A stretch of 53,974 bases of DNA from SAR324 cluster bacterium (GCA_028282505.1 JANQHV010000554.1:1-53974), one strand, 5' to 3'; shown: positions 15,100-29,104, counted from the first letter of the stretch. Translations and numbers: made by a program. The notes: a model not told the origin generated them from the sequence alone.

Positions 15100-16854
15100 A
15101 TGTTACAGCGATTTAAAATCTTATACTTACTGTGGGGACTGTTGAAGCACCACAAAGTACAATTTTTGTTATGCCTGTTTTTTGTATTTTTGAATTCTAT
15201 CCTGCTCGGGGGAATTTTAAGTTTTTTAATGCCCGTGATTAATCAGTTTTTTGCACTAGATACGGTTGTTACTAAAACAAACAACGGATATTTTGGAAAA
15301 ATTTTAAACATTTACCAAAGTATCATACGTGATTTTGAGTATAAGGAATTAATTGCCATTGGAGTGCTTTTTCTAATGATGATCGTGAATTCAACGGTTA
15401 AATTTTTGATTATCTATGTCAATAGTGGTTTGATGGCAAATATGACATACGAATTCCGCAGGCAGATTTATTGGATTATCCAAAAGTTGCGATTTGTTGA
15501 AGTTTCCACAGAAGCAAAAGGCACCTTCATTCAACTCATTATCACGGAAACCAAAAGCATCAACAATTTATTCAAACATGGACTTTTACTGATTACAGCA
15601 ACTGTCAATGCTTGTATCATTGCGTTATTGTTAATGCTTCTTTCATGGAAAATGTGTGTGGGGCTATTATTGGGCTACCTCGTTGTGCTTTATATCAATT
15701 CATACATCATTCGAGGAATAAAGATTCTGGGAAAGGAGGCCCTTAATTTGCGATCGGAGCTGGCAAATCATATTACAGAAGGGATCTGGGGACTGAAGCA
15801 ATTAAAGATAATACAGGCCGAAGCACTGGAGAAACAAAAAATAAACCAGGTGTCATTTCGCTCAGAATTCAAAGCACGGACACTCGTCGTCAAAAATGGT
15901 TTACTCAAATTTACCTCCCAAAGCCTTTCTACCATTTTGGTCTTTATCATTTTTGTTTTGTGGTTTTATTTTCCAGTTTTGTCGGAAGATATACCCCGCA
16001 AAGCAGGATTTTTAACATTTTTGATTCTGTTGAGCCGACTGGCACCTCATGTCAATGCCATTTCCAGTAATTACGGTCAATTGTCTTCCATCTTGCCTTC
16101 CATTTTACGACTTCATGAGTTTTATACAAAAGAACTCGAACCCGAGCAGAGTGGTTCTTTAAAGCCTGAGCCTTTTTTGCAAGAAGAAATTCATCTGCAA
16201 AATGTTGAATTTGGATATCTTGACGATAAGCCAATACTCAAGGGTATCAATTTAAAAATACAAAAGGGTGCCTACATTGGGATTGTCGGAAATTCTGGTG
16301 GAGGCAAATCAACTTTGTTGAACTTATTTCCTCGCCTTTATGCTCCTGATAAAGGAAAAATTTTGATTGATAATGTAAATGTCGAAGAATTCGATCTATC
16401 GTACCTTCGCGCAAAAATTGGGATAATTTCACAAGATTTTGTTCTATTCAATACAACGATTCGTGAAAATCTAGCCCTGGGCAAACCACAAGCTTCTGAA
16501 GAAGAATTATGGCAGGCGCTTGAAAAATCAGGTTTACAGCAATTTGTTCAGGCTCAGGAGGATGGCCTTGATTATCAGGTCGGAAACAATGGTAGTAAAT
16601 TATCAGGGGGCCAACGTCAACGCTTATCATTGGCCTCCCTGTTTTTACAAGACCTGGAGTTAATTATCCTGGATGAGGGGACGAGTTCTGTTGATCCCGA
16701 AACAGAAAGGCATATCTTAAATTCTTTACAAGAACTGCATAAAAAAGGGATCACGATTATTTCCATTGCCCATAAAGAAAGCGCATTGGCTGATGCAGAA
16801 TGTATTTATGAATTGAGTGAAGGTCACTTACAACTAAAATCTCCTGCAGTGTGA
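15100..16854 (+). CDS. ABC exporter, fused permease and ATPase (MsbA/PglK-like), copy 1
   Basis: Six-TM N-terminal domain, Walker A GNSGGGKS, LSGGQRQR, ILDEGTS, IAH. Confidence 0.9.
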   Translation: MLQRFKILYLLWGLLKHHKVQFLLCLFFVFLNSILLGGILSFLMPVINQFFALDTVVTKTNNGYFGKILNIYQSIIRDFEYKELIAIGVLFLMMIVNSTVKFLIIYVNSGLMANMTYEFRRQIYWIIQKLRFVEVSTEAKGTFIQLIITETKSINNLFKHGLLLITATVNACIIALLLMLLSWKMCVGLLLGYLVVLYINSYIIRGIKILGKEALNLRSELANHITEGIWGLKQLKIIQAEALEKQKINQVSFRSEFKARTLVVKNGLLKFTSQSLSTILVFIIFVLWFYFPVLSEDIPRKAGFLTFLILLSRLAPHVNAISSNYGQLSSILPSILRLHEFYTKELEPEQSGSLKPEPFLQEEIHLQNVEFGYLDDKPILKGINLKIQKGAYIGIVGNSGGGKSTLLNLFPRLYAPDKGKILIDNVNVEEFDLSYLRAKIGIISQDFVLFNTTIRENLALGKPQASEEELWQALEKSGLQQFVQAQEDGLDYQVGNNGSKLSGGQRQRLSLASLFLQDLELIILDEGTSSVDPETERHILNSLQELHKKGITIISIAHKESALADAECIYELSEGHLQLKSPAV

Positions 16855-16943
16855 TCCTTAAATATCCTATTTAATTCTTTTTCGATAATGAGAATGATGT
16901 GATCCAAATTGAAGTCATCGTACCTGTTTCATCAGCTATTCCC

Positions 16944-17298
16944 ACAAAAAGGAGTCCGTTGTTGGTTTGCGCATGAAGATATGAAAATTGGTGACAAAAT
17001 ACAGCAAACGATTACCGATTCTATTCGCGTGTATGACAAACTCTTGTTGATCTTTTCTGATAATTTTGTGGAGAGTGAATGGGTTGAAAAAGAGGTGGAA
17101 ATGGCTTTTAAAGAAGAACGTCAACGCAAAATGACTGCTTTGTTTCCAGTTCGTTTGGATAGGGCTGTCATGGAAACCAGTCAAGCCTGGGCGGAAGATA
17201 TCTATAATTCTCGTCATATTGGCGATTTTACCAATTGGAAAGACCATGATTCGTACCAAAAAGGGTTTGATCGATTGTTACGAGATTTGAAATACTAA
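16944..17298 (+). pseudogene. 5'-truncated TIR domain gene
   Basis: From QKGVRCWFA onward it parallels the TIR domain of 17894-18901 but lacks the FISYS strand and first helix, and has no credible start. The last 82 bp are 80/82 identical to 18814-18895. Confidence 0.8.
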
Positions 17299-17332
17299 CG
17301 ATGAGTTCAGTATCTCGCCTGTTGGAATGGCT

Positions 17333-17418
17333 TATTAGAGCGGGGGAAGGCAATAACTTGTGGTGAGCGGTACAAATTGATATAGTGACGGATTGATAAC
17401 CGTTGCTGTAGAGGATAG
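17333..17418 (+). repeat. R1 repeat copy 1 (structured intergenic element; other copies 18942-19027 and 20776-20858)
   Basis: Shared core AGGCAATAACTTGTGGT followed by hairpin TAGTGACGG/CCGTTGCTG (17383-17408) and GAGGATAG. Confidence 0.85.
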
Positions 17419-17474
17419 TCAAAAATCACCTAAGGCACAACGGCACTCATCCTATATAAAAAGAAGGATATCCA

Positions 17475-17753
17475 ATGAGCACAATGATTGCAGAAGTTTA
17501 TGAGGCCCTTAAAGAAGCTGGGGCTTCTGAAGAGAAATCAAAAGCAGCATCACAGGCCATTGCTGATTATGAGGAACGTATTAGTAAAGCTAATATATCC
17601 ATGCGTGAATTGGATAAAAAAATGGAAGTGGGGTTTGCTGAAATGAAAATCCAACTGACGAAAATTGATGGTGAGATTCGTGTACTCAAGTGGATGCTTG
17701 GTGTGCTCATCGCTGGTATCGTCTCATTGATTCTGAAATCGTTTTTAATATAG
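17475..17753 (+). CDS. Small coiled-coil protein with C-terminal TM helix (DUF1640/CCDC90-like)
   Basis: YEALKEAGASEEKSKA start, heptad region, LKWMLGVLIAGIVSLI tail, AAGGA ribosome-binding site. Confidence 0.7.
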   Translation: MSTMIAEVYEALKEAGASEEKSKAASQAIADYEERISKANISMRELDKKMEVGFAEMKIQLTKIDGEIRVLKWMLGVLIAGIVSLILKSFLI

Positions 17754-17763
17754 TAAAAGCCTA

Positions 17764-17962
17764 ATCAACGGTTATCAATAATTATCTGAGACACAACGGC
17801 ACTCATTGAGAGTACGCTATGAGGAAACGGTGGGTGGTGAAATTCAGTATATTAATAAATGAATGTTGAGATTCACTCAACTTGGAAACTAAAATGGCCA
17901 ACGAACTGAGACAAATCAGCGAATCAGAACTCCAGGAAATCCTGAATAAGCATGAGGAGTGG
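17764..17962 (+). repeat. Leader plus N-cap direct repeat copy 1 (copy 2 at 19311-19510)
   Basis: About 130 nt of non-coding leader plus the first ~23 codons are nearly identical between copies. Its 31-bp sub-motif TCAAAAATCACCTGAGACACAACGGCACTCA also occurs, slightly varied, at 17419-17449. Confidence 0.95.
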
Positions 17963-18901
17963 CTGGAGTCTAAGCAAACAAAAGGCGAGCAAGCTGATCT
18001 CATTGAAGCCAATCTCAGTTACACCGATCCCACTGGTGCCGATCTCAGGAAAGCCAATCTCACTGGTGCCAATCTCATTGAAGCCGATCTCACTGGTGCC
18101 AATCTCAGGGGAGCCAATCTCAGGGGAGCCTATCTCATTGAAGCCGATCTCAGGGAAACCGATCTTTTTGAAGCCGATCTCAAGGGAGCCAATCTCAGGG
18201 GAGCCAATCTCAGTGAAGTCAATCTCAGTGAAGTCAATCTCAGTGAAGTCAATCTCAGTGAAGCCCATCTCTGGAACACTATTTTTGCTGATGTGGATCT
18301 TCGAGAAGTGAAGAGGCTTGAAACTGTCAAGCACCGTGGACCATCTACCATAGGACTTGATACCATTTATCGATCACAAGGAAAGATTCCCGAAGTGTTT
18401 TTGAGAGGCTGCGGGGTTCCTGATAACTTTATTGAATACATGCACTCGCTCACTGGATCAGCGATTGAGTTTTATTCCTGCTTTATCAGTTACTCCAGCA
18501 AGGATGAGGATTTTGCACAACGGCTTCATGCGGATTTACAGCAAAAAGGAGTCCGTTGTTGGTTTGCACCAGAAGACATGAAAATAGGTGATAAAATACG
18601 ACAAACCATCACAGATTCTATTCGAGTGCATGACAAACTCTTGTTGATCCTTTCTGACAATTCTGTAGAAAGTGAATGGGTTGAAGATGAGGTAGAAGAC
18701 GCTCTGGAACAAGAAAAGAAACGTAATGGTAAACCAAATGTTTTATTTCCAGTTCGTATCGACGATACAGTAATGAACACGAATCATGCTTTTGCCGCTA
18801 AAATACGTCGAACTCGTCACATTGGCGATTTTACCAATTGGAAAAACCATGATTCGTACCAAAAAGGGTTTGATCGATTGTTACGAGATTTGAAAGCCTA
18901 A
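17894..18901 (+). CDS. Pentapeptide-repeat protein with C-terminal TIR domain
   Basis: N-cap ELQEILNKHEEW, about 20 A(D/N)Lxx repeats, then FISYSSKD...SEWVEDE with the WxxxE catalytic Glu position retained. Confidence 0.92.
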   Translation: MANELRQISESELQEILNKHEEWLESKQTKGEQADLIEANLSYTDPTGADLRKANLTGANLIEADLTGANLRGANLRGAYLIEADLRETDLFEADLKGANLRGANLSEVNLSEVNLSEVNLSEAHLWNTIFADVDLREVKRLETVKHRGPSTIGLDTIYRSQGKIPEVFLRGCGVPDNFIEYMHSLTGSAIEFYSCFISYSSKDEDFAQRLHADLQQKGVRCWFAPEDMKIGDKIRQTITDSIRVHDKLLLILSDNSVESEWVEDEVEDALEQEKKRNGKPNVLFPVRIDDTVMNTNHAFAAKIRRTRHIGDFTNWKNHDSYQKGFDRLLRDLKA

Positions 18902-18941
18902 TGAACAAATTCAGCAGTGCTTGCACCTGCTGGAATTTTAT

Positions 18942-19027
18942 GATTAGGCGGGGTAAGGCAATAACTTGTGGTGAGTGGTACAAGTTGATACAGTGGCGGT
19001 ATTGATAACCGTTGCTGTAGAGGATAG
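18942..19027 (+). repeat. R1 repeat copy 2, ending in the RBS of the HTH gene
   Basis: Hairpin CAGTGGCGGT/ACCGTTGCTG at 18991-19017, then GAGGATAG and the ATG. Confidence 0.85.
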
Positions 19028-19261
19028 ATGAGGAAAAAGTATATGACCGTTGAAGAGTTAACTGTATTCACAAAAGAAAAAGTAAAACAAGCTGGCATGA
19101 CTCAAGTGTTTTTGGCGCAAGAATTGGGAGTAACTAAAGCGACGATCAACCATGCTCTGAATCGTGCTCAATCTCAATATAATGGAACGCGGGCTAAAAT
19201 CCTTAAGCACTTGGGATATAAATTGAGCGATCCTGCTTACACGGTCGAGAAGGTATATTGA
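19028..19261 (+). CDS. Small XRE/Cro-like HTH protein
   Basis: GMTQVFLAQELGVTKATINHAL helix-turn-helix. Confidence 0.85.
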   Translation: MRKKYMTVEELTVFTKEKVKQAGMTQVFLAQELGVTKATINHALNRAQSQYNGTRAKILKHLGYKLSDPAYTVEKVY

Positions 19262-19279
19262 TTTAGCTTACTTTAGAGC

Positions 19280-19308
19280 TTGACATGTATATCAAATTAA
19301 CCTACTTT
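19280..19308 (+). promoter_or_regulatory. Sigma70-type promoter with overlapping imperfect palindrome
   Basis: TTGACA-N17-TACTTT starting 19 bp after the HTH stop. TTGACATGTATATCAA (19280-19295) is an imperfect inverted repeat. Confidence 0.65.
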
Positions 19309-19310
19309 TA

Positions 19311-19510
19311 ATCAACGGTTATCAAAAATCACCTGAGACACAACGGCACTCACTTAAGAGTACGCTATGAGGAAACGGTGGGTGGTGAAATTCAGTATAT
19401 TCATAAATGAATGTTGAGATTCACTCAACTTGGAAACTAAAATGGCCAACGAACTGAGAAAAATCAGCGAAGACGAACTCCAGGAAATCCTGAAGAAGCA
19501 TGAGGAGTGG
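19311..19510 (+). repeat. Leader plus N-cap direct repeat copy 2
   Basis: Near-identical to 17764-17962. Confidence 0.95.
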
Positions 19511-20656
19511 AGAGGTTCTTTTGGAGGCATAGGCGAAAAAGCCGATCTCCGTGGAGCGGATCTCCGTGGAGCGGATCTCCGTGGAGCCAAGCTTAGTTAC
19601 TCCGATCTCAGTGGAGCCGATCTCACTGAAGCTAATCTCAATAGAGCCGATCTCAGTTACGCCAATCTCGCTGGAGCCGATCTCAGTTACGCTGGTCTCA
19701 CTGGAGCCAATTTCTTTGGAGCCAGTTTCTTTGAAGCCGATCTCACTGGAGCCAAGCTTAGTTCCTCCGATCTCAGTGGAGCCCAGCTCCTTAGTACCAA
19801 GCTCATTGGAGCCAATCTTGTTCTAACAAAGTTTAATGAAACGCTTATTGAACGTGTAGACTTTACTGGCGCAAAATTAAACCTTTTATCACTCCAAGGA
19901 GTTAAGTTTGGTTCAATTAAAAGTTGGGAAAATGCATCTTTCAAACAAGTGACTGTCGATCAGGAAGTCTACAATACCATTCCCTATAACTTGAAAGAGA
20001 AGTACAAGGACACGTTGGTGGTGAGTAATGTGATAGTGGATAAGGAAGGGGTGAAGGCTTCCTTTGAGTTTCCTAAGCATCTAAGAACCGCTTGTGAGCA
20101 ATATTTGATGTATTTCGGGGAATTTTTGAAAGATTTGGGAACTTCGGCTGACGTCACCGTAAGAAAAAAAGGCCAAGAAACATTATTCTCAGTGATTCCC
20201 GAAAAGCAGGAAAAAGCATTAGAAAAAATTAAAGATGCGTTATCATTCTATATTGGACTAACCATTGTTCCAGAAGATGAGATTCATATTGAACAAACAG
20301 AAGATCTAAGACAACAAATTTCGTTGAGTCGGCTTAAAGCTGAATATCACGATCTTAAAAAGAAAATTGAATCCAATGACGCAGAAAACGCGGCATTACA
20401 AATTGCGGTCAATGCTTTACAAGATAATGTTAAAATGAGCAAGGAAGCTCTCAGTGCTGTAATTTTGTTGTCTTTTAAGTCCATTGAAAAACAGGGCAAA
20501 AAAGAAGATAGCGAGAAGTTTCTAGAAGATGCGATCAAATTAACAAAATTGAGATTGCCAGGGGTCGAAATCGATTTACCTAAAGTGGTCGAGCAAAGTC
20601 GAAGGTTATTGCATCTCGACAAGAAGCCATCTACTCGAAAGAAAAAGGTGAAATAA
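19442..20656 (+). CDS. Pentapeptide-repeat protein with unnamed C-terminal domain and coiled coil
   Basis: Same N-cap (MANELRKISEDELQEILKKHEEW), about 25 pentapeptides, then FEFPKHLRTACEQYLMYFGEFLKDLG and a heptad-rich tail. Confidence 0.88.
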   Translation: MANELRKISEDELQEILKKHEEWRGSFGGIGEKADLRGADLRGADLRGAKLSYSDLSGADLTEANLNRADLSYANLAGADLSYAGLTGANFFGASFFEADLTGAKLSSSDLSGAQLLSTKLIGANLVLTKFNETLIERVDFTGAKLNLLSLQGVKFGSIKSWENASFKQVTVDQEVYNTIPYNLKEKYKDTLVVSNVIVDKEGVKASFEFPKHLRTACEQYLMYFGEFLKDLGTSADVTVRKKGQETLFSVIPEKQEKALEKIKDALSFYIGLTIVPEDEIHIEQTEDLRQQISLSRLKAEYHDLKKKIESNDAENAALQIAVNALQDNVKMSKEALSAVILLSFKSIEKQGKKEDSEKFLEDAIKLTKLRLPGVEIDLPKVVEQSRRLLHLDKKPSTRKKKVK

Positions 20657-20775
20657 TAACGAGATCACCTGCTGAACCATGTCGCGCAGTATGAACCCGA
20701 TATAGGGCCTCTATTTATTTTATCATAGATAGGTTAAATATATGTCCGCATATGGTTCAGACAGGTGGATTGGCT

Positions 20776-20858
20776 GATTAGGTGACAGGTAGGCAATAGC
20801 TTGTGGTAGGCAGTAGGCTTTGGTACAGTGGCGATTATTAATCGTCACTGGAGTGAAT
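20776..20858 (+). repeat. R1 repeat copy 3 (diverged), ending in the RBS of the second HTH gene
   Basis: GATTAGG..AGGCAATAGCTTGTGGT..TACAGTGGCG, hairpin CAGTGGCGATT/AATCGTCACTG (20826-20850), then GGAG and the ATG. Confidence 0.75.
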
Positions 20859-21089
20859 ATGGAAGAAAAAATAATGGACATTCAAGAATTAACCGATTTT
20901 GCCAATGAGTTGTTTGAAAAGTCAGGAAAGACCAAGGTTGCTTTTGCTGAAGAATTAGGTATTTCTCGCACAAATCTATATAAAGCCCTGACTGAGCCTA
21001 ATCCGTCATACGTGGCAACCAAAGAAAAAGTCTTGAATGCCTTTGGTTACGGTCTGCATGGGACAAAGTATAGTGTAGTTAAACTGTAA
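20859..21089 (+). CDS. Small XRE/Cro-like HTH protein, paralogue of 19028-19261
   Basis: GKTKVAFAEELGISRTNLYKAL. Same length and layout (M...EL..F....L...GY.L....Y.V.K). Confidence 0.85.
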   Translation: MEEKIMDIQELTDFANELFEKSGKTKVAFAEELGISRTNLYKALTEPNPSYVATKEKVLNAFGYGLHGTKYSVVKL

Positions 21090-21142
21090 TCTAAAAAAGA
21101 TTTCAAAATAACTTGACAGTATAATCTAATATAGATTACATT
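21087..21142 (+). promoter_or_regulatory. Sigma70-type promoter with palindromic operators
   Basis: TTGACA (21113-21118)-N18-TACATT. Perfect inverted repeat TAATCTA-ATA-TAGATTA (21122-21138) and a related AATCT-N5-AGATT (21088-21102). Confidence 0.7.
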
Positions 21143-21214
21143 AAAAACAGCAGATACGGAAATCCAACACGGAAGTTTTATAAAGTAATTCAGATGAACA
21201 AATAACTGAGCACT

Positions 21215-22324
21215 ATGTTCGACAAACTGACACACATCAACAAAAACGAACTCCAGGAAATCCTGAAGAAGCATGAGGAGTGGTTGGAGTCTGGCTACAA
21301 AAAAGGTGAAAGAGCCAATCTCAGTGGAGCCAAGCTCAGTTACATCAATCTCAGTGGAGCCAATCTCAGTGGAGCCAAGCTCAGAGAAGCCAATCTCAGT
21401 GGAACCGATCTCAGTAAAGCCAAGCTCAGTGACGCCGATCTCAGAGAAGCCGATCTCAGTAAAGCCAAGCTCAGTGACGCCTATCTCAGGAAAGCCAATC
21501 TCATTGAAGCCAATCTCACTGAAGCCGATCTCAGAGAAGCCGATATACATAATGCTACTTTTTCAAATGCTAATTTAGAGCGTGCTAATTTTCAACAAGT
21601 GAAATGCATCTCTATTGGGAATTGGGCGGGAGCTCAGTGTCATGGCACGATCATGGATGGGTATCTTTATCAAAAGCTCCAAAATGACTTGAAAGAGAAG
21701 TACAAAGACACGTTGGTGGTGAATAATGTGATAGTGGATCAGGAAGGGGTGAACGCTTTCTTTGAGTTTCCTGAAGATATCCGAACCGCTTGTGAAGAAT
21801 ACTTGATGTATTTTAGGCAATTTTTGAAAGACCAGGCTCTCACAGCAGAGGTCATGGTTAAAAATGAGGGAAAGAGCACGCTGTTTTCTGTGAAGCCTTC
21901 AGATAGGGGTGAAGCGCTGGAAAAGGTTCAAGAAGCACTGGGGATTTATCTAAATTTGCCTCAAGCATCGGAAAGCGACCTAAAAGTTCTAGAAGAGACA
22001 AATTTTAAGCAGCATATGGCCTTGGTTCGTTTGAAGCAAAAATGCCAGATGTTTAAATCACAGGCTGAAGTTTTTCAAAGTGAAGCCAATACCTTGAAAG
22101 AGTTGGTAAAAACCAAAGAGGAAGTTGTCAGAGCAAAGCAACAGACGATTGATATTGTCCAACATGACTTGAAGCTAATTCTGTCTTATTCTTTGCAATA
22201 TGTCAAAATCCATGGAAAACAGCAGAATCGGCAATCGTTTTTGGCAACCGTTGCTCAAAAAGTTGCAGCACCCGCACTCAAGCGGATTGTTGATAAATCA
22301 TTAAAGGCATTGCCTGAAGCCTAA
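21215..22324 (+). CDS. Pentapeptide-repeat protein with the same unnamed C-terminal domain and coiled coil
   Basis: ELQEILKKHEEW N-cap, about 20 pentapeptides, FEFPEDIRTACEEYLMYFRQFLKD. Confidence 0.88.
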   Translation: MFDKLTHINKNELQEILKKHEEWLESGYKKGERANLSGAKLSYINLSGANLSGAKLREANLSGTDLSKAKLSDADLREADLSKAKLSDAYLRKANLIEANLTEADLREADIHNATFSNANLERANFQQVKCISIGNWAGAQCHGTIMDGYLYQKLQNDLKEKYKDTLVVNNVIVDQEGVNAFFEFPEDIRTACEEYLMYFRQFLKDQALTAEVMVKNEGKSTLFSVKPSDRGEALEKVQEALGIYLNLPQASESDLKVLEETNFKQHMALVRLKQKCQMFKSQAEVFQSEANTLKELVKTKEEVVRAKQQTIDIVQHDLKLILSYSLQYVKIHGKQQNRQSFLATVAQKVAAPALKRIVDKSLKALPEA

Positions 22325-22653
22325 TAAACAATTATACAGATCCGCATAATATTACAAATTGAGTGTTATACGGATAAAAAATGATCAAAATTTCAAAAAT
22401 ATAATCTTTTTAGTATGAGATATACAGGACATTATCAAAGAAAATGTCTCAGAAACGATCAGGGCGGTATTATTCAAACCAGAGGACATAATACGAATTA
22501 ATTTTTTTCCAGTCACTTGCACTTTCAGAACCTGTATTGTCCTGCTTTAAGTGGATAGTCCGTTTCAACCAAGTGAAAATTACTTATGTTTCTTTGTCTA
22601 ACCTAAACTGTCAATAAAATAATATTTTAAAGTTAATTTAGAAAGGAAAAAAT

Positions 22654-22911
22654 ATGGAAAAAGCACGACTAACGAAACCCGAAATCAGTAAAAAGATAGA
22701 GAACAATACCACCATTCTTTCAGCACTTCGTCATTTGACCAAATGCCTTGGAGAGGAGGGAATAGAAGACAATGAAGAGGTGATTTCCACAATGGAGGCT
22801 TTATTTTTTTATCTGGAGCACCAATTTGAGAAGATCCAATATGACGTACTTCGTCTTCATACCGTTACTGTTTCTCCCGGAGAAGGATTTGATCCAACTC
22901 AACAATCGTGA
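22654..22911 (+). CDS. Small hypothetical helical protein
   Basis: ATG with AAGGA RBS. No recognisable motif. Confidence 0.5.
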   Translation: MEKARLTKPEISKKIENNTTILSALRHLTKCLGEEGIEDNEEVISTMEALFFYLEHQFEKIQYDVLRLHTVTVSPGEGFDPTQQS

Positions 22912-22949
22912 ATGACACCATTTAGTATTTATTCTCAACTCCAACGGAG

Positions 22950-23243
22950 ATGACCATGTTTGACACTTTTCAGGAACATCCATCCCAAGATTCCGGCGCT
23001 GCTGATTGGACTGCTATTTATGATGAGTTGGATGAATTCAGTGATTATTGTTGTTTTTTGTGTGATGCTTACGCCCTTATTGTCACTCGCTCCGAAGATG
23101 AGGTCATCGGAGAGAGAACCATCAGTGGAATCCGACGTTCTGCCAATTGGATGAAAGAGCGGCTAGAAGAAATCAATGCCAAATTCAGAAAAGCACAGGA
23201 ACAATCTTGTGAGGAAACAAACAAGAAAAAAGACACAATGTAA
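22950..23243 (+). CDS. Small acidic hypothetical protein
   Basis: GGAG RBS, co-oriented with the previous ORF. No recognisable family. Confidence 0.5.
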   Translation: MTMFDTFQEHPSQDSGAADWTAIYDELDEFSDYCCFLCDAYALIVTRSEDEVIGERTISGIRRSANWMKERLEEINAKFRKAQEQSCEETNKKKDTM

Positions 23244-23522
23244 ATTCCCCACCTCATATTCCCCATTTCTCTATTGATGTTTCACTGTGAGGATGCTAGC
23301 TAAAATTTAGTATTTCTCACAGATGAAACGCAAATCAATTGACTATCATTTCTTGACTCAAGGTCTGTGATAGAAATCAAGAAAATCAGAAATTTTTGCG
23401 AACAAACACATTCACACAGACCTGGAACCTTGCGCTTTTTTGCCAGTTTTTAGGAAATTTAAGTCGTTCGCTTTTTTGTCATGATGTGGCAAAATCACGG
23501 TACTATAGTGAAAATAATTTGA

Positions 23523-23591
23523 ATCTAACAACACGCTGCGAGGGAATTGCCTATATTGTACTTCGACAATCCCCAGAGCGCAGTGCTATCC
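23523..23591 (+). other. Degenerate integron attC-like site
   Basis: ATCTAAC-aacac-GCTGCGAGGGAATTG...CAATCCCCAGAGC-gcagt-GCTATCC: R''/L''/L'/R' spacing with an imperfect stem. R' has GCT instead of GTT. Confidence 0.45.
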
Positions 23592-23620
23592 AGCTAAGGA
23601 TGTAACTTTTTCCAAAATTA

Positions 23621-24133
23621 ATGAGTAATCAAATGAAACAATTGTCAATATTTTTAATTTCTATATACTTTTTTATCCTATCAGGTTGCTTTGCAGTTGA
23701 GACAAATTCAGATGAAAATGAATTTGTCACGTTTCAAATTCCTATCAACAAAGCCATTTTTTCAGAAAAAGCTGTATTAAATGTCAGATTGTATACAGAA
23801 GAACAATTGAAGATATTGGAAGAACAAGATTCCTGCTTTATTTCATATGACCAACAAAATGGAGAAAAAATCTCTTGTCCTGATGGCGTTGAATACCAAA
23901 AAATAATCCCGGAAGAATTTACATTCTTTATTCAGGATATTGAGAACCAGATTGAGGTTAAAAGTGTTTTTATTCAAACCGGGAAAAAATATCGCTTATT
24001 GGTCACCGGTCTGTACAACGATAATTGTAATACAACATCAGGTGGTATTATAGCAATTGCTCGTAGTGAAACAATCAAATTAGATGAACTATTTTGGATA
24101 ACGACAGCGATAGGATGCTTCTCAAATGGTTAA
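23621..24133 (+). CDS. Putative lipoprotein
   Basis: Lipobox LSGC after a hydrophobic signal. The stop codon lies inside GGTTAAC, which resembles an attC R'' box. Confidence 0.7.
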   Translation: MSNQMKQLSIFLISIYFFILSGCFAVETNSDENEFVTFQIPINKAIFSEKAVLNVRLYTEEQLKILEEQDSCFISYDQQNGEKISCPDGVEYQKIIPEEFTFFIQDIENQIEVKSVFIQTGKKYRLLVTGLYNDNCNTTSGGIIAIARSETIKLDELFWITTAIGCFSNG

Positions 24134-24266
24134 CAATTGGGTAGAGGCCGACCGGATGGGTAGCACATTTTTCCACAATTCTGGCGAATTATAGGTACGT
24201 TACTTTTGTATAAGCCTATGTTCCCATTTAGCAAATCGCGCAAGCGTTCGGCCGGAGATAACTATC

Positions 24267-24878
24267 ATGTTTCAAGACCAGATAATTCTTAGAACGGCAA
24301 AACCTAACCTTGATGAAGGACGATTGTTTGCCAACTTTCTCGACAGAGCAGCTGAAGGTTTTTTTCGTTTCTGGCTTGGTCCCAACGCCGTGGATATAGT
24401 TGCCGCAGCATTTATCCAGCCAAACCATGATTTGTCTTACCAGAATGTAATCTTCGCTGAACATGACAGGGTCATTTTGGGAATGACCTTAAGCTACACA
24501 GCCGAGCAGCATCGCAGCACATCAGACCAACCCTTGAAGTTGGCAGCAGGTAGATCTAGTTTGCGGATGAGAGCCATATCAATACTGTTTGCACCACTTC
24601 TGCGAATTATTGACACCATTCCCGATGGCGATTTCTATCTGCAAGCTATTGCGGTTGACAAGGAACTCGAAAGCAAAGGTGTTGGTTCGATTTTACTAGA
24701 TTGGATTGAGAACCGAGCTATTGCCTGTGGATCAGCAAGACTCGTCCTCGACGTTTCAGCAAAGAATGAGCGAGCTCGAAGTTTCTATGAGCGCCGTGGG
24801 ATGACCATCGAGTCGCAGTGGCCAAAGCGATTGCCTATATCAGGATTGAAATTCTATCGAATGGCAAAAGCACTCTAA
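24267..24878 (+). CDS. GNAT-family N-acetyltransferase
   Basis: FYLQAIAV.....SKGVGS.LL and LDV...NERARSFYERRG. Confidence 0.9.
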   Translation: MFQDQIILRTAKPNLDEGRLFANFLDRAAEGFFRFWLGPNAVDIVAAAFIQPNHDLSYQNVIFAEHDRVILGMTLSYTAEQHRSTSDQPLKLAAGRSSLRMRAISILFAPLLRIIDTIPDGDFYLQAIAVDKELESKGVGSILLDWIENRAIACGSARLVLDVSAKNERARSFYERRGMTIESQWPKRLPISGLKFYRMAKAL

Positions 24879-24911
24879 GTTCTAATAGATATCATCTCTG
24901 AATGCATATTA

Positions 24912-25086
24912 GAGGGTGTTTAAAAATTATGTTCCTACTGCAAAACTGCCAAAAATGGAGCGGATTTCCGGAATGCCGGACCACCAGAAATTCTCGTTAA
25001 ATAGTTCGCTATTCGCCTCAAATTTCTGAAAAATCTCTCTCATTTTGGACGATTTTTCGTCACGGAAATAATTTTTAAACGCCCTC
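24912..25086. mobile_element. 175-bp MITE, IS5-family-like
   Basis: 19-bp TIRs GAGGGTGTTTAAAAATTAT / ATAATTTTTAAACGCCCTC (18/19) with TTA duplicated on both sides (24909-24911, 25087-25089). Confidence 0.85.
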
Positions 25087-25166
25087 TTAGACTCCACCCA
25101 CTCCTTGTGCTTCTTCAGGATTTCCTGGAGTTCGTCTTTGCTGATTTTTCTCAGTTCGTTGGCCAT
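25087..25166 (-). pseudogene. 5' remnant (N-cap only) of a fourth pentapeptide-repeat gene, cut at the MITE
   Basis: MANELRKISKDELQEILKKHKEWVES matches the starts at 17894 and 19442. Similarity stops exactly at the MITE end. Confidence 0.85.
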
Positions 25167-25184
25167 CGTTGTTAGTCTCTGGGG

Positions 25185-25397
25185 TTAAGCTGGAATTTTG
25201 GTTACTTTGGGTTCAGGTAATGTGTCACCATGCTCTTGTGCGCTTTCTAACCATAAATCCATCGCTACTTTTACTTCGTGGAGTGCTTCTTCATAGGTTT
25301 CACCAAATGCAGAGCATCCTCTCAATTCCTCGACAATGGCAATGAACCCTTCATCTTCGAGACTCCAGAAAATCTTGATCGTGTATTTTGTTTCCAT
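25185..25397 (-). CDS. hicB: HicB-family antitoxin, short form without a DNA-binding domain
   Basis: YTIKIFWS.ED.GFIA.V.EL.GCSAFGETYEEAL......W......G..LPEP. Confidence 0.9.
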   Translation of the reverse strand: METKYTIKIFWSLEDEGFIAIVEELRGCSAFGETYEEALHEVKVAMDLWLESAQEHGDTLPEPKVTKIPA

Positions 25398-25398
25398 C

Positions 25399-25635
25399 TC
25401 ATTCTCCGTCAATTGCTTCTAGTGCTTGCTTGATTTGATATGGTTTTGCATTACCGGATTTGTCTGGTTGGAAATTCAAACGCCTCCTTGTTAGAGGATG
25501 TAAGAACAAATGATGACTTCCTCTCGTTCGATCTAATACAAATCCTTGATCCTTCAGCCATTGTACCACATCCTTAAACTTTATATTATTGGGATTGTTT
25601 CTAATTCTTTGATCCAGTTTTTCTTGTTTTCCCAT
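25399..25635 (-). CDS. hicA: HicA-family toxin
   Basis: NPNNIKF.D....L...GF...RTRGSHH.F.HP and AKPYQIKQ. Confidence 0.9.
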   Translation of the reverse strand: MGKQEKLDQRIRNNPNNIKFKDVVQWLKDQGFVLDRTRGSHHLFLHPLTRRRLNFQPDKSGNAKPYQIKQALEAIDGE

Positions 25636-25670
25636 CAAGTTTCCTTAACCTGTGTTTCAGTGTTAAGGTG

Positions 25671-25699
25671 ATTGTGCTTATTATGCACAATAGTGTCAA
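25671..25699 (-). promoter_or_regulatory. Sigma70-type promoter of hicAB with palindromic operator
   Basis: Minus strand reads TTGACA-N17-CACAAT. Perfect inverted repeat ATTGTGC-N7-GCACAAT (25671-25691). The -35 begins 16 bp after the stop of 25951-25715. Confidence 0.7.
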
Positions 25700-25714
25700 A
25701 TTTTATTGTGTCGA

Positions 25715-25951
25715 TTATGCACTTTTATCAAAATTAAGAAAAGTCTGAATGATACCCTTCACGTTTTTTGGTATGCCGTTCGTCCTCCACTTCGGGAACT
25801 GGGTACGATCAATCGGGTTTTCATCATCTCTCAAATGCTCAGATAATTTGGTAGCCAATTCGGTATCATCACTACAGCCCAACTTTTCCATCAGCTGAGC
25901 CAGCAATTCAACTGATTCCTGATCCTGATCTTTTTGAGGTTTACCTACCAT
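25715..25951 (-). CDS. Small CI/Cro-like HTH protein
   Basis: LMEKLGCSDDTELATKL...IDRTQFPKWRTNGIP resembles phage repressor HTH N-terminal domains. Confidence 0.55.
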   Translation of the reverse strand: MVGKPQKDQDQESVELLAQLMEKLGCSDDTELATKLSEHLRDDENPIDRTQFPKWRTNGIPKNVKGIIQTFLNFDKSA

Positions 25952-26009
25952 TCTTCAATTTCTGTTTGAGGTTAAAACCTCAGATTATCATCACCCGCGC
26001 AACGCACCA

Positions 26010-26059
26010 GCCTAATAATGTACATCGAGCAGACGAGCTGCTCATGTGGCTCATTATCC
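26010..26059 (+). other. Short degenerate attC-like hairpin
   Basis: GCCTAAT-aatgt-ACAT(C)GAGCAG-acgag-CTGCTCATGT-ggctc-ATTATCC: perfect stem with one extrahelical C at the L'' position. AAC/GTT is replaced by AAT/ATT. Confidence 0.45.
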
Positions 26060-26108
26060 CCTTTGGTATGGAGCCAATGACTTTTGGATTTGTCGAGATT
26101 CTTTGCAA

Positions 26109-26176
26109 GGTGAACGAGAAAATGAGCCATTTCAAAACCGCAGGGATTGAAATCTGTCTCAATTGGCTTGTCATGT
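26109..26176 (-). other. attC-like site downstream of the HigA-like gene
   Basis: Minus strand ACATGAC-aagcc-AAT(T)GAG..ATTTCAA...TTGAAAT..CTCATT-ttctc-GTTCACC. R'' matches GTTATGT at 26946-26940 upstream of the TA pair (6/7). Confidence 0.6.
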
Positions 26177-26187
26177 CATGCGCTCTA

Positions 26188-26511
26188 TTACGCACTCAAT
26201 CTATAGTCGAGTAGTTCTGGAAACCTGTCCAGTAACTCAAGGAGAACCTTTGTTGAGCCAGTAGGTTTTCTTTTTCCCTGCTCCCATTGTCTTACAGATG
26301 AAGGGCTAACATTTAGGACTTGAGCAAATACCGTTTGGCTCAGATTCATATTTTTTCTTATTTTTTGAATTTGTTGCGGAGATAAATCTATCTTTGGAAT
26401 CTTAACGCCCAGAGTATCTAATTCTTTCTTGGTGAAAGATGTTTTTAATCCAGCATTAAGCATTTGTTGAACAGTATCTCCTACTGCACTTGTTATTGAA
26501 TCTCTCATCAT
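26188..26511 (-). CDS. higA: HigA-like XRE-HTH antitoxin
   Basis: IQKIRKNMNLSQTVFAQVLNVSPSSVRQWEQGKRKPTG. Overlaps the toxin stop. Confidence 0.88.
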   Translation of the reverse strand: MMRDSITSAVGDTVQQMLNAGLKTSFTKKELDTLGVKIPKIDLSPQQIQKIRKNMNLSQTVFAQVLNVSPSSVRQWEQGKRKPTGSTKVLLELLDRFPELLDYRLSA

Positions 26512-26879
26512 TCATCCTCCAAATCAAATAATACTTTTTCAAGTATTGCCTGCTTTAATTCTTCTGAATTTAAATTCAAAAGATCACTCCCCAATTTTTT
26601 GAAATATTTTAATTCTGTTTTGCTGATATTATCTTTTTCATTTTTCCCAAAACCATATAGAAAAATAGCTCTGTCCTCTTTTCTATAAACTATGATTGTC
26701 CTAAAGCCTGAGCTTTTACCACTATGTTCTCTTTTTACACGAATTTTAAAAAGATCACTTCCCAAATTCGATGTGGAGAGATCCAATTCTAGATCTTCAA
26801 TAGCATCTAGTAAATCTTGGTTGCTCAACTTCACTTTTTTTGACCATTTTTGGAACCATTTGGTAACTAATTTATCCAT
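26508..26879 (-). CDS. higB: RelE/ParE (HigB-like) toxin
   Basis: LG..LFKIRV.R...GKSSGFRTII......IFLYGFGKNEKDNIS..E. Toxin-first gene order. Confidence 0.88.
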   Translation of the reverse strand: MDKLVTKWFQKWSKKVKLSNQDLLDAIEDLELDLSTSNLGSDLFKIRVKREHSGKSSGFRTIIVYRKEDRAIFLYGFGKNEKDNISKTELKYFKKLGSDLLNLNSEELKQAILEKVLFDLEDE

Positions 26880-27072
26880 AAAATCACTATACTACATTGT
26901 GATATAGTTAACAAGCAGGTTTCGAGGGATGAATGGAGGACATAACAGAGTCAATGGATCTTGCGGTATCTCCACTATTATGGAGGGAAACCTATCCAAT
27001 GGGAGATAGGAAGTCAATCATTTCATCTGCCAACTGTTTCGCCCCAGGAAGAAAATCAAACGGTGTTTTGGA

Positions 27073-27132
27073 TATACTCATGTGATGAAAAAAGACATTG
27101 ATGGACTACAAAGCCCTTTGGATCAATGGTGA
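27073..27132 (+). pseudogene. C-terminal remnant of an integron-integrase-like tyrosine recombinase
   Basis: Translates YTHVMKKDIDGLQSPLDQW*, the YTHV...SPLD tail typical of IntI-type integrases. Upstream codons do not continue the match. Confidence 0.65.
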
Positions 27133-27355
27133 TCCCCCATAAAAGCATGATTGGAAAAATCATCTTTGTTTTTCCTATTTCAGAAAACTTGAACATCGGA
27201 CGAAAGCGTGATATTTGTTGCTTGTTTTTCCTGGCTTGCGTGGTATTGTTCAATAGGAATAGCCTGAGAAAACCAAATTCTAACACCCCACCTATCATAA
27301 GCCTCACAGCCTACAGAAAACTTCTGCTACATGATTATTAGGGATATAGAATCTA

Positions 27356-29104
27356 ATGTTATCTCGAGGAATTGATACAGTTAATTTACTGTGGAGCTTT
27401 TTAAAACCTCGGAAGCAAAACTTCATTCTTTGCATTTTCCTTGCGTTTTTCAGCTCTATCATACTTGGAAGTGCCCTCAGTTTAATATTACCTGTCGTGA
27501 GTCTTGTTTTTTCCTCTGAATTATTCACAAGTCACGAAAATCTTGGATATTTTCAACAAATCATTCAAGCATTTCAAAATACTATAGCTGATCTTGAGCA
27601 CAAAGAAATTTTTGCTGTCGGCATTCTTTTTCTCATGGCCACTTTCAATGAAGGAATACGATTTTTAGTAATATGTGTAAATAGCAGTCTGACTGCAAAA
27701 ATAACCTATGATTGTCGGGATCGTATTTACAGTGTAATTCAAAATATGCAGTATGGTCATTTCTCCAGGCATCCTCACGGGATGTTTATTCAATTGTTGA
27801 TTACTGAAACTCGAAGCGTTTATACTGTATTTAAACATCTGTTGAGCATCGTGGTGACCTCGGTCAACTCTTTTGTTTTAATTCTGTTAATGATGCTCCT
27901 TTCCTGGAAATTGAGTCTGCTGTTATTGGCATGCTTTCCTGTTATTGTTTTAATTAACTTAAAAATAGTTAAAAATATCAAATTATTAGGAAAAAAAGCA
28001 ATTAATTCACGTGCTAATCTGACAAGCCAGGTGGGTGAAGGAATTTTAGGTCTCAAGCAGTTGCGTTTGCTTGGAGCAGAATCCCAAATAGCAACAAAAG
28101 TTAATAAAATCTCATTTCGATTGGAGCAAATTGTTAAATCAATTCAGATTAGAAATAGCTTCCAGTCCTTTATTTCCCAAAATCTTTTCATTCTTGGGGT
28201 TTTGGGTATTTTCAACGTTTGGTTTTTTTTGCCAGTCTTTGCTGAAGGTATCCCCCGAAAAGCAGGAATTGTCACCTTTTTTATACTTGTCAGCAGATTA
28301 GTTGAATATTTGAGTTCTGTCGCAAAAGACTATGGAGCTATTTTTGCGAACTATCCTGCTCTTAAGCGTGTTAATGAATTTCTAGAAAAAAAACATGTCA
28401 TGGAACAGGGTGGTTCCATACAACGGGAATTATTGTGTCACACAGGAATCAATTTAGAAAATATTCACTTTGCCTTTTCAGCAGATACCCCCATCCTCAA
28501 AGGCATTTCATTGCAAATTAAGAAGGGCAGTTATATAGGGATTTTAGGTACTTCCGGAAGTGGAAAAACAACAATGTTTAATTTACTTCCTAGAATTTAC
28601 GATCCGACTGAAGGCAAGATTTTAGTTGATTCAGTGGATATTCGTGAATTCCAATTACAATACTTACGCTCAAAAATTGGAATGATCTCACAGGATTTTT
28701 TCCTTTTCAACAGCACGATCCGGGAGAATCTTCTTTTATCCAAACCAGATGCTGAAGAAAATACCATTTGGACATCATTGGAAAAAGCAGGATTGTATGA
28801 ATTTGTCAAATCTCAGGATCAAGGGTTAAACAGTCTTGTTGGTAACAATGGCGATCAATTATCAGGAGGGCAACGTCAACGTTTATCCCTGGCGATGCTG
28901 TTTTTACAAAATCCAGAAATAATTATCATGGATGAAGGAACGAGCTCTGTGGACCAGAAAACAGAAAAACATATCTTGAACACACTACGTGAATTACACG
29001 AAAAAGGAAAAACCATTATCTGTAGTACTCATAAAGCAAGCACACTCTCTGATGCGGATCATGTTTATGAGATGCGAAACAATACCCTGGAAAAGATTCG
29101 ATAA
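27356..29104 (+). CDS. ABC exporter, fused permease and ATPase (MsbA/PglK-like), copy 2
   Basis: GTSGSGKT, LSGGQRQR, IMDEGTS. Shares FIQLxITET and IPRKAG with 15100-16854. Confidence 0.9.
   Translation: MLSRGIDTVNLLWSFLKPRKQNFILCIFLAFFSSIILGSALSLILPVVSLVFSSELFTSHENLGYFQQIIQAFQNTIADLEHKEIFAVGILFLMATFNEGIRFLVICVNSSLTAKITYDCRDRIYSVIQNMQYGHFSRHPHGMFIQLLITETRSVYTVFKHLLSIVVTSVNSFVLILLMMLLSWKLSLLLLACFPVIVLINLKIVKNIKLLGKKAINSRANLTSQVGEGILGLKQLRLLGAESQIATKVNKISFRLEQIVKSIQIRNSFQSFISQNLFILGVLGIFNVWFFLPVFAEGIPRKAGIVTFFILVSRLVEYLSSVAKDYGAIFANYPALKRVNEFLEKKHVMEQGGSIQRELLCHTGINLENIHFAFSADTPILKGISLQIKKGSYIGILGTSGSGKTTMFNLLPRIYDPTEGKILVDSVDIREFQLQYLRSKIGMISQDFFLFNSTIRENLLLSKPDAEENTIWTSLEKAGLYEFVKSQDQGLNSLVGNNGDQLSGGQRQRLSLAMLFLQNPEIIIMDEGTSSVDQKTEKHILNTLRELHEKGKTIICSTHKASTLSDADHVYEMRNNTLEKIR

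Follow-up and report, generated by a model that had tools for sequence, protein, structure and literature searches.

Tandem loci in which alternative C-terminal modules follow one another are known from the Rhs and contact-dependent inhibition systems, where orphan toxin modules stand in a row and short conserved junctions let recombination swap the C-terminus. The same logic of tandem C-terminal modules and short junctions is found in a stretch of DNA from a SAR324 cluster bacterium (GCA_028282505.1 JANQHV010000554.1:1-53974), in which an array of genes for pentapeptide-repeat proteins (PRPs) lies between positions 16,944 and 22,324. The window denotes this whole stretch of 53,974 nucleotides (nt), and all coordinates are window positions. 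Three genes of the array, PRP-TIR, PRP-X1 and PRP-X2, join a pentapeptide-repeat region either to a TIR domain or to a second C-terminal domain, here named X. In contrast to Rhs and contact-dependent inhibition loci, the constant part is a predicted pentapeptide beta-helix, no secretion-related domain is present among the Pfam hits reported, and there is no obvious immunity gene.

Modular conflict systems with one constant module and rapidly varying modules have been described by Kaur et al. (eLife 2020 and 2021), and in the portions of these papers drawn upon here pentapeptides appear among the repeats and TIR among the effectors. The array resembles these systems in that a constant module is joined to varying ones. 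However, as described in those portions, they have NTPases, caspases, effector-associated adaptor domains (EADs) or TRADD-N at their core, and among the Pfam hits of the open reading frames (ORFs) of the accessory island that holds the array no NTPase, caspase or TRADD-N family occurred, EADs not having been searched for. The bacterial TRADD-N proteins, again as given there, carry the repeats C-terminally and the effector N-terminally, which is the reverse of the order in the array.

With regard to single domains, AbTIR and other bacterial TIR NAD+ hydrolases (PDB 8g83, 7uwg, 7uxr) share the TIR domain with PRP-TIR, including an aligned glutamate column, but AbTIR is without a pentapeptide domain and identity is limited to ~95 residues. 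Likewise, matches to Thoeris ThsB, PDC-S66, SAVED-TIR and TIR-pAgo partners cover only the TIR part of PRP-TIR. Qnr and MfpA have the pentapeptide beta-helix in common with the array proteins but are without a fused effector, and the NCBIfam equivalog models for them gave 37.8 bits against a cut-off of 240 and 36.9 against 360. Nearest is a family of PRP-linker-TIR proteins with the same domain order, linker, C-terminal motif and invariant glutamate, for which no experimental study was found in the literature searched. Most of these relatives start with another N-terminal helix, of the ...WNxWR... type, whereas the gene described here stands in a tandem cluster together with PRP-X genes, helix-turn-helix (HTH) genes and shared non-coding blocks.

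The account that we favour, at slightly better than an even chance, is that of a genome-specific, tandemly expanded cluster of single-chain PRP effector genes of a conflict type, in which segments are swapped at conserved blocks.

Gene order and domain composition of the array

The array, all on the plus strand, opens with a 5'-truncated TIR gene remnant (ORF 16909-17298, homology from ~16928), which starts 73 nt past the stop of an ABC-transporter gene. Its match to Pfam TIR_2 (E 2.3e-17) covers model positions 18-122 of 122 and, because it begins only at position 18, the N-terminal strand is missing; the remnant is 72% identical in amino acids to the TIR domain of PRP-TIR. It is followed by a non-coding block termed R1, a small gene for 92 residues (17475-17753) and a non-coding leader, after which PRP-TIR (335 residues) extends from an ATG at 17894 to 18901, with an ORF start also at 17882. 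A second R1, HTH1 (19028-19261; an Xre-type HTH protein of 77 residues) and a second leader precede PRP-X1 (19442-20656, ORF start also at 19430; 404 residues, with X at about residues 162-404 behind N-cap and pentapeptide repeats), and a third R1 and HTH2 (20859-21089, within ORF 20820-21089; a small DNA-binding protein of 76 residues) precede PRP-X2 (21215-22324; 369 residues, pentapeptide repeats and X). Gene order, repeats and patchy identity as given in the initial annotation were reproduced by ORF calls, repeat finder, self-BLAST and Pfam, and the small HTH genes are indeed interleaved with the effector genes, HTH1 and HTH2 both lying between PRP genes.

In all three genes the repeat region is a 15-nt periodic array of 14-18 copies, and PRP-TIR, PRP-X1 and PRP-X2 scored 118.5, 96.8 and 110.2 bits (E 7.9e-35, 4.8e-28 and 3.1e-32) with Pfam PF00805, the cut-off of which is 20.2. 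Each of them holds at least eight contiguous A(D/N)LXX-type repeats above this cut-off, by which membership of PF00805 was defined. An AlphaFold2 (AF2) model of PRP-TIR (pLDDT 86.6) places a helix at residues 10-26, then strands of one or two residues spaced 5 residues apart to about residue 130 (repeat-region pLDDT 89-98), linker helices at 155-193 and a TIR domain at 195-334 with alternating strands and helices. The protein is predicted by this model to form a beta-helix, right-handed and quadrilateral, that bears a capping helix, and capping helices are a known feature of pentapeptide-repeat proteins in the part of a PRP review used here. The helix ahead of the beta-helix agrees with the label 'N-cap' chosen from the sequence, and the description of a shared N-terminal helix and pentapeptide beta-helix with an exchanged C-terminal domain is supported.

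The TIR domain of PRP-TIR matched TIR_2 at E 7.1e-27 (94.8 bits, cut-off 28). In a search with PRP-TIR, 7995 of 8000 scored candidates reached E<=0.001, and the best 120 matches all combined pentapeptide repeats and TIR at 48-70% identity over 89-100% of the query. Source labels of these relatives were 'toll/interleukin-1 receptor domain-containing protein' or 'YjbI with pentapeptide repeats'; what had been called an unrecognised architecture is, as to PRP-TIR, that of a huge conserved family which is routinely annotated. In an alignment of 65 sequences, i.e. that of the window and 64 of the best 120 matches, the linker (GPSTIGIDTIY...FLRGCGVPD), the TIR domain and the C-terminal motif are strongly conserved, and E266 is invariant. 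The best solved relative of the TIR domain is AbTIR (8g83, E 7.3e-11), an NAD+ hydrolase, in which the glutamate of the WTNYE segment aligns with E266 and is presumably the catalytic residue. TIR NAD+ hydrolases have a conserved catalytic glutamate behind the third strand; the TIR domain of PRP-TIR carries a glutamate of this NADase type, and cleavage of NAD+ may be predicted.

The X domains of PRP-X1 and PRP-X2 are 36% identical to each other and found nothing above the curated cut-offs in Pfam or NCBIfam and nothing at all in PADLOC or PHROGs. A word-based protein search returned 8 proteins only, a false look of rarity that was corrected by an exhaustive profile search, in which 1664 clusters reached E<=1e-3 and 793 of these E<=1e-30. 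Proteins of the X family are typically ~370 residues long with X at the C-terminus, and because most clusters carry other domains N-terminally, X can be regarded as a portable C-terminal module. Among 30 X proteins scanned with Pfam, two had pentapeptide repeats (one being PRP-X2 of the window), two a receiver domain and one a weak hit below cut-off, and 25 had none. Response-regulator receiver domains precede X in the proteins P0080 and P0081, and in their N-terminal 100-150 residues most X-family proteins have another domain in common, for which Pfam has no model. Named genomes with X (28 loci in a narrower alignment) comprise Acidobacteriota, Paenibacillus, Chryseobacterium, Longimicrobium, Nostoc, Adonisia and Leptolyngbya, and in 12 loci of other genomes X has integrase, transposase, KAP NTPase, HEPN, DUF6414 and Phd antitoxin genes among its varied neighbours. 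X had no match in 50,697 phage records; a search of 72,556 plasmid records gave a single match, located on a Pseudoalteromonas record of 1.2 Mb.

In its AF2 model (pLDDT 77.9) X is built of a two-hairpin two-helix alpha/beta sandwich (residues 33-112), followed by a long helix (128-183) and, at the C-terminus, a small basic part. A homodimer prediction scored 0.02, which speaks neither for nor against a dimer, and a search of the ESM Atlas gave no usable match. TRADD-N was considered for X, with no Pfam hit for X and no TRADD entry among the matches listed in two fold searches. Judged by its position, X is likely an effector: it takes the place of TIR behind the same beta-helix and, in other proteins, the place of an output domain after receivers.

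Conserved blocks and exchange of segments between paralogues

Repeats of the array were returned by self-BLAST with E-values of 1e-115, 5e-114 and 2e-49, far past chance. The repeat finder paired 16928-17129 with 18525-18726 (80%), 17210-17301 with 18813-18904 (95%; 87/92 nt, the TIR 3' end), 17806-17962 with 19354-19510 (96%) and, as the repeat-to-X junction block, 19986-20133 with 21684-21831 (88% over 148 nt). It also found three copies of R1 (17340-17391; 18948-18999 at 90%; 20783-20834 at 65%) and three of the leader start (17762-17805; 19309-19352 at 93%; 17406-17449 at 68%). Identity had been said to peak at module borders, which a 30-nt identity profile confirmed. On recomputation, 189 of the 200 columns match in leader plus N-cap (17764-17962 vs 19311-19510), and the repeat-to-X linker (19989-20074 vs 21687-21772) again gives 81/86; the peak at the TIR 3' end is present as well, but the last 82 nt hold 78 matches instead of the 80 first reported.

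When the unit with the 92-residue gene (unit A, by whose positions the profile is given) is compared with the unit containing HTH1 (unit B), identity amounts to 57-70% at 17108-17221, 59/60 at 17222-17281, 15/26 at 17311-17336 just past the stop codon and 87-100% at 17337-17425, i.e. in R1. Homology is nil across the small gene and returns with 90-100% at 17771-17919, followed by 26/30 at 17920-17949 and 18/30 at 17950-17979. The same flanks enclose different content, the 92-residue gene in unit A and HTH1 in unit B, and in unit A R1 is joined directly to 31 nt that repeat the leader start, the HTH1-type gene of the next unit being missing there.

Evidence bearing on exchange comes from coding and non-coding blocks. 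Within the junction block of X1 and X2 (alignment columns 204-256) 130/150 nt are identical, compared with 215/483 outside, a contrast reached by 0/300 codon permutations. Where both proteins have the same degenerate residue, the same codon is used in 31/37 cases inside the block and in 14/41 outside (Fisher p=1e-5). Because purifying selection on the protein does not predict identity at the codon level, and recent conversion does, the block at 19986-20133 points to a gene-conversion tract. Between X2 and the copy on contig C272 the synonymous-codon signal is weaker (p=0.011). The non-coding leader copies A (17762-17893, before PRP-TIR; core 17786-17840) and B (19309-19441, before PRP-X1) are 95% identical over 121 nt and adjoin repeat tracts of ~60-70%. 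In the TIR gene on contig C36, codons 256-315 share 156/174 nt with the TIR remnant of the window vs 124/174 with the intact gene, and codons 211-255 are equidistant from both (110-111/135). We conclude that segments are exchanged among the paralogues by way of homologous recombination.

The conserved blocks had been put forward as recombination joints, and exchange between paralogues is supported by the codon test, the leader and the TIR gene on C36, but a dedicated shuffling mechanism is without support. Pfam hits of the 19 scanned island ORFs included no recombinase family, and the PADLOC hits on these 19 were restricted to generic HTH models, all on one ORF. Ordinary homologous recombination among paralogues is enough to explain the exchange.

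Regulatory blocks, related cassettes and the surrounding island

The first R1 block, R1a (17334-17418, plus strand), lies past the TIR stop and contains the inverted repeat AACTTGT-N10-ACAAATT, and R1b (18943-19027, plus), 91.9% identical to it over 86 nt, has the perfect inverted repeat AACTTGT-N10-ACAAGTT and ends at the start codon of HTH1. Further copies are located on contigs C272 (two), C513, C36 and C551. R1c (20783-20858, plus), in front of HTH2, is a divergent subtype with 65% identity to R1a and 88% over 59 nt to a copy before an HTH2-like gene on C272. The R1 inverted repeat stands immediately ahead of the small genes, and that of R1a is a candidate operator or promoter. The 'promoter' labels of the initial annotation were not confirmed, a sigma-70 scan giving 11 sites vs 14.7 +/- 4.0 in shuffles, and promoter and terminator scans found no enrichment above shuffled sequence.

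HTH1 matched Pfam HTH_3 (E 1.6e-5; 25.3 bits, cut-off 23) and transcriptional regulators in PHROG. HTH2 is 35.5% identical to HTH1 (E 5.5e-11) and 85% to its paralogue on C272; it matched the transcriptional repressor phrog_4268 at E 2.7e-5, every Pfam hit being below cut-off. The 92-residue protein, a coiled coil with a hydrophobic C-terminal tail and XhlA/'hemolysin'-like, matches the phage 'hemolysin' phrog_1193 weakly (E 2.5e-5), has nothing above cut-off in Pfam and has a paralogue with 67% identity on C272; it was rejected as a regulator. Coiled-coil proteins of 94-123 residues are also encoded beside PRP effector genes on C272 (4872-5216), C36 (4013-4384 and 4837-5121) and C358 (3859-4203), with only weak PHROG matches of unknown function.

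An extra copy of the leader start (17419-17449, plus) is fused to R1a and is 93.5% identical over 31 nt to 19322-19352. The leader core of ~55 nt is present in eight copies in the genome (window 17780-17850 and 19328-19399, loci L008-L013), matching six other contigs at 80-93%. Two copies precede PRP genes, and the other six precede a pair of genes for 85 and ~97 residues, each with a small HTH gene ahead. In Rfam, 16000-26000 gave one chance-level lncRNA match at E<=1, and the leader belongs to no known family there; its core may be a cis-regulatory RNA or an operator.

Gene pair, small HTH gene and leader form a cassette with at least six further copies in the genome, members of the cassette family being found on contigs C236, C103, C89, C15, C249, C199, C513 and C391. 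In the window the 85-residue gene (22654-22911) and the 97-residue gene (22950-23243), both on the plus strand, close the cluster, and the 3' part of a long leader (22568-22653, plus) precedes the former as in six stand-alone cassettes, compared by eye. The pair follows PRP-X2 and keeps only this 3' part; PRP-X1, HTH2 and PRP-X2 would seem to lie within a cassette of this kind. Neither gene of the pair has a Pfam or PHROG hit. The 97-residue protein matched 19 times within this genome and in none of 30 relatives, and among 5.8 billion proteins searched it found 9 matches, all on contigs fitting this assembly; the summed contig depth of its gene is 239 vs ~10 for unique parts. Some cassettes (C199/L013 92-1140 and 4165-5165; C89/L010 107-679) are flanked, by eye, by repeated ORFs resembling transposase fragments.

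Related clusters exist on further contigs. C272 holds an HTH gene, R1 twice, a coiled-coil gene, PRP-X, a truncated homologue of the 85-residue gene and a homologue of the 97-residue gene, and C36 an HTH gene, a coiled-coil gene and PRP-TIR with a homologue of the 97-residue gene after it. A PRP-X is encoded on C314, a divergent PRP-TIR on C553 and, on C358, a PRP with only a short non-repeat C-terminal tail. Among 31 genomes, this one included, X occurs in two (i.e. one relative), TIR plus linker in five (four relatives) and the leader DNA in this one alone. In a genome of the same genus (92% complete) neither X nor leader nor TIR plus linker was found.

The accessory island of 10.5 kb (16855-27355) lies between two ABC-exporter genes within a glycan-biosynthesis cluster. 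These exporters (15100-16854 and 27356-29104) are similar, both with transmembrane and ATPase domains, as if the island had split a gene pair. A search for an empty site with the flanking ABC transporter gave no clear orthologue in five relatives (best 32% identity). Further island genes are a GNAT gene, HicAB and a RelE-type pair, and gene remnants are present as well. A fourth N-cap had been placed at 25087-25166; it is present at 25089-25166 on the minus strand, as an inverted repeat of 82-92% identity, but only as the remnant of a PRP gene interrupted by a short repeat element, which the ORF enters past residue 26 and by which its residues 26-79 match >40 contigs of the genome. This element (24911-25087) has 47-nt inverted ends (24911-24957/25041-25087; 74% complementary), and its copies often lie at contig ends; probably it is a repeat resembling miniature inverted-repeat transposable elements that truncated the fourth PRP gene.

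At 25185-25951 on the minus strand, HicA and HicB come after a small HTH gene of the type found in the 85/97-residue cassettes, with the truncated N-cap next in line; the payload behind a leading HTH gene seems to differ between such loci. Also on the minus strand, 26188-26879 holds the gene of a RelE-family toxin (Pfam E 4.4e-34) together with that of an HTH_3/MqsA-like antitoxin. In the glycan cluster, the protein encoded at 43916-44992 matches PADLOC viperin models (E 3.9e-15), which may reflect only a superfamily shared with viperins.

Competing explanations and meaning of the cluster

According to the account that we favour, each gene encodes a capping helix at the N-terminus and a pentapeptide beta-helix that varies in length, fused to linker and TIR or to X, and the products would be conflict-type effectors (abortive-infection or toxin-like). 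The beta-helix might sense or hold a partner, TIR would cleave NAD+ on activation, with X as an alternative output, and the HTH proteins would repress transcription via R1 and/or the leader. The conserved blocks would serve as homology patches, at which ordinary recombination could swap C-terminal domains and intervening small genes.

Several results weigh against this account. The locus had been taken for a defence or conflict system, and the domains fit, but this role is read from the domains only, and functional evidence was not found. In the window PADLOC gave generic TIR matches (PDC-S66, SAVED-TIR, Aga TIR, ThsB-like; E 3.5e-14 to 1e-3) and neither a complete named system nor a partner of one: the ThsB models were weak (E 3e-8 or worse), ThsA, the partner with SIR2 or Macro plus SLOG that defines Thoeris alongside ThsB, matched 0/57 window ORFs scanned, and models for SAVED, Argonaute or other partners had no match. 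For X, Foldseek against the PDB found nothing at E<=1e-3, the best hits of a VIA wide search (Z 7.3) were generic alpha/beta sandwiches and coiled coils, and no conserved residue pattern or fold match suggested an enzyme; its neighbours in the 12 loci mentioned above are varied and some are housekeeping genes (DnaK, MiaB-like). In the leader RNA fold, with an 8-bp outer stem, changes are all one-sided and 0/15 pairs are compensatory. An N-cap PRP-TIR and a PRP-X stand alone in relative G009, with no HTH gene among the ORFs listed ~1.5 kb to either side. As to exchange, the synonymous test of X1 against the C272 copy is non-significant (46/72 vs 11/24, p=0.15), and the motif encoded at the TIR 3' end is near-invariant across phyla in the 65-sequence alignment. 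In one public DNA run, labelled as a coral metagenome and possibly the source, 85% of the sampled words are present; two others from this study contain almost nothing of the stretch, and no RNA run is listed as containing it. The contigs of the run with the stretch end at the repeats, no single one reaching across the array, and the order of units across near-identical repeats is no more than plausible.

The alternative that survives best, although we consider it unlikely, is that of toxin-antitoxin-like addiction modules with selfish spread, in which the small HTH protein would be antitoxin and autorepressor of the adjacent PRP effector, or the 85/97-residue pair an addiction unit. It would accommodate the sub-threshold matches of HTH1 to HipB-type antitoxins and of HTH2 to an 'addiction module antidote' model, the presence of HicAB and the RelE-type pair in the same island, and the 97-residue gene, with its many copies in this genome and none in the relatives. 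However, every antitoxin match stays below its curated cut-off (HipB 18.7 bits vs 79; dnstrm_HI1420 22-24 bits vs 27 in Pfam or 53.7 in NCBIfam) and HTH_3 exceeds its own for HTH1 only. Moreover, an HTH gene adjoins PRP-X1 and PRP-X2 and not PRP-TIR, which at 17894 is preceded by the coiled-coil gene, and the two PRP genes of G009 have no HTH gene among the listed ORFs.

Less probable still is plain tandem duplication with divergence, in which the copies would exchange nothing and patchiness would only mirror how unevenly purifying selection acts on proteins and on regulatory DNA. The C-terminal motif of TIR and the N-cap are conserved as proteins in the family, the leader core is kept in eight copies, suggesting function, and X1 and the C272 copy gave the non-significant test mentioned above. 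Because the encoded motif is near-invariant in the family, part of the identity peak at the TIR 3' end can be put down to protein constraint. However, such constraint does not account for the synonymous codons shared in the X1/X2 junction, nor for the 59/60 identical nt at 17222-17281, third codon positions included; the coiled-coil gene and HTH1 between the same flanks and the shift in affinity along the TIR gene on C36 likewise speak for exchange. Both recombination and selection play a part in the patchiness.

There is little to recommend a third explanation, by which the genes would encode ordinary cellular PRP regulators, acting in cell differentiation or protecting DNA-binding enzymes, with TIR and X for signalling or scaffolding and no role in conflict. 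In NCBIfam, HetL and Alr5209-type pentapeptide proteins matched best and Qnr and MfpA next, the core of X is similar to dimerisation sandwiches, and the receiver-X fusions suggest that X is a signalling output; however, these NCBIfam matches are far below cut-off (HetL 81 bits vs 260, Qnr 38 vs 240), the genes are accessory, X and leader being confined to two genomes and one of the 31, respectively, and they reside in an island with toxin-antitoxin pairs and gene remnants. An assembly artefact, i.e. a chimera of similar strain or paralogue genes collapsed or mis-joined in this metagenome-assembled genome (692 contigs, 88% complete, 2% contamination), is very improbable even with run contigs that break at the repeats, as mismatch-free ones (16000-17229, 18469-18842, 18966-19340, 19481-20829, 20801-21275 and 21452-22563) cover the unique parts and bridge R1b-HTH1-leader, PRP-X1 through R1c, HTH2 into PRP-X2 and X2 into the downstream spacer, and reads are placeable because the repeats are 80-96% identical and not identical.

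Going beyond the favoured account of a PRP effector cluster with swaps at conserved blocks, it might be speculated, with considerable doubt, that X, a domain of ~1,700 clusters from many phyla, acts as a new cell-autonomous effector, or as an effector-recruiting oligomerisation module, in place of the TIR NADase on one pentapeptide sensor, and that the shared leader, which precedes PRP genes, the gene of the small membrane protein and the 85/97-residue cassettes, is a portable regulatory RNA or operator which doubles as a homology patch for assembling new sensor-effector operons.

PRP-TIR proteins are very common and no tested function was found for them in the literature searched; a locus with an invariant residue of the catalytic type offers a direct test case. 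As neighbouring paralogues carry either TIR or X behind one and the same beta-helix, the array provides a guilt-by-association lead for the X family and, if the more speculative reading of X is true, the cluster would be a natural domain-swap experiment for X vs TIR. The locus documents, as the conversion tract suggests, gene conversion creating new domain pairings within one genome, which for conflict genes is usually only inferred.

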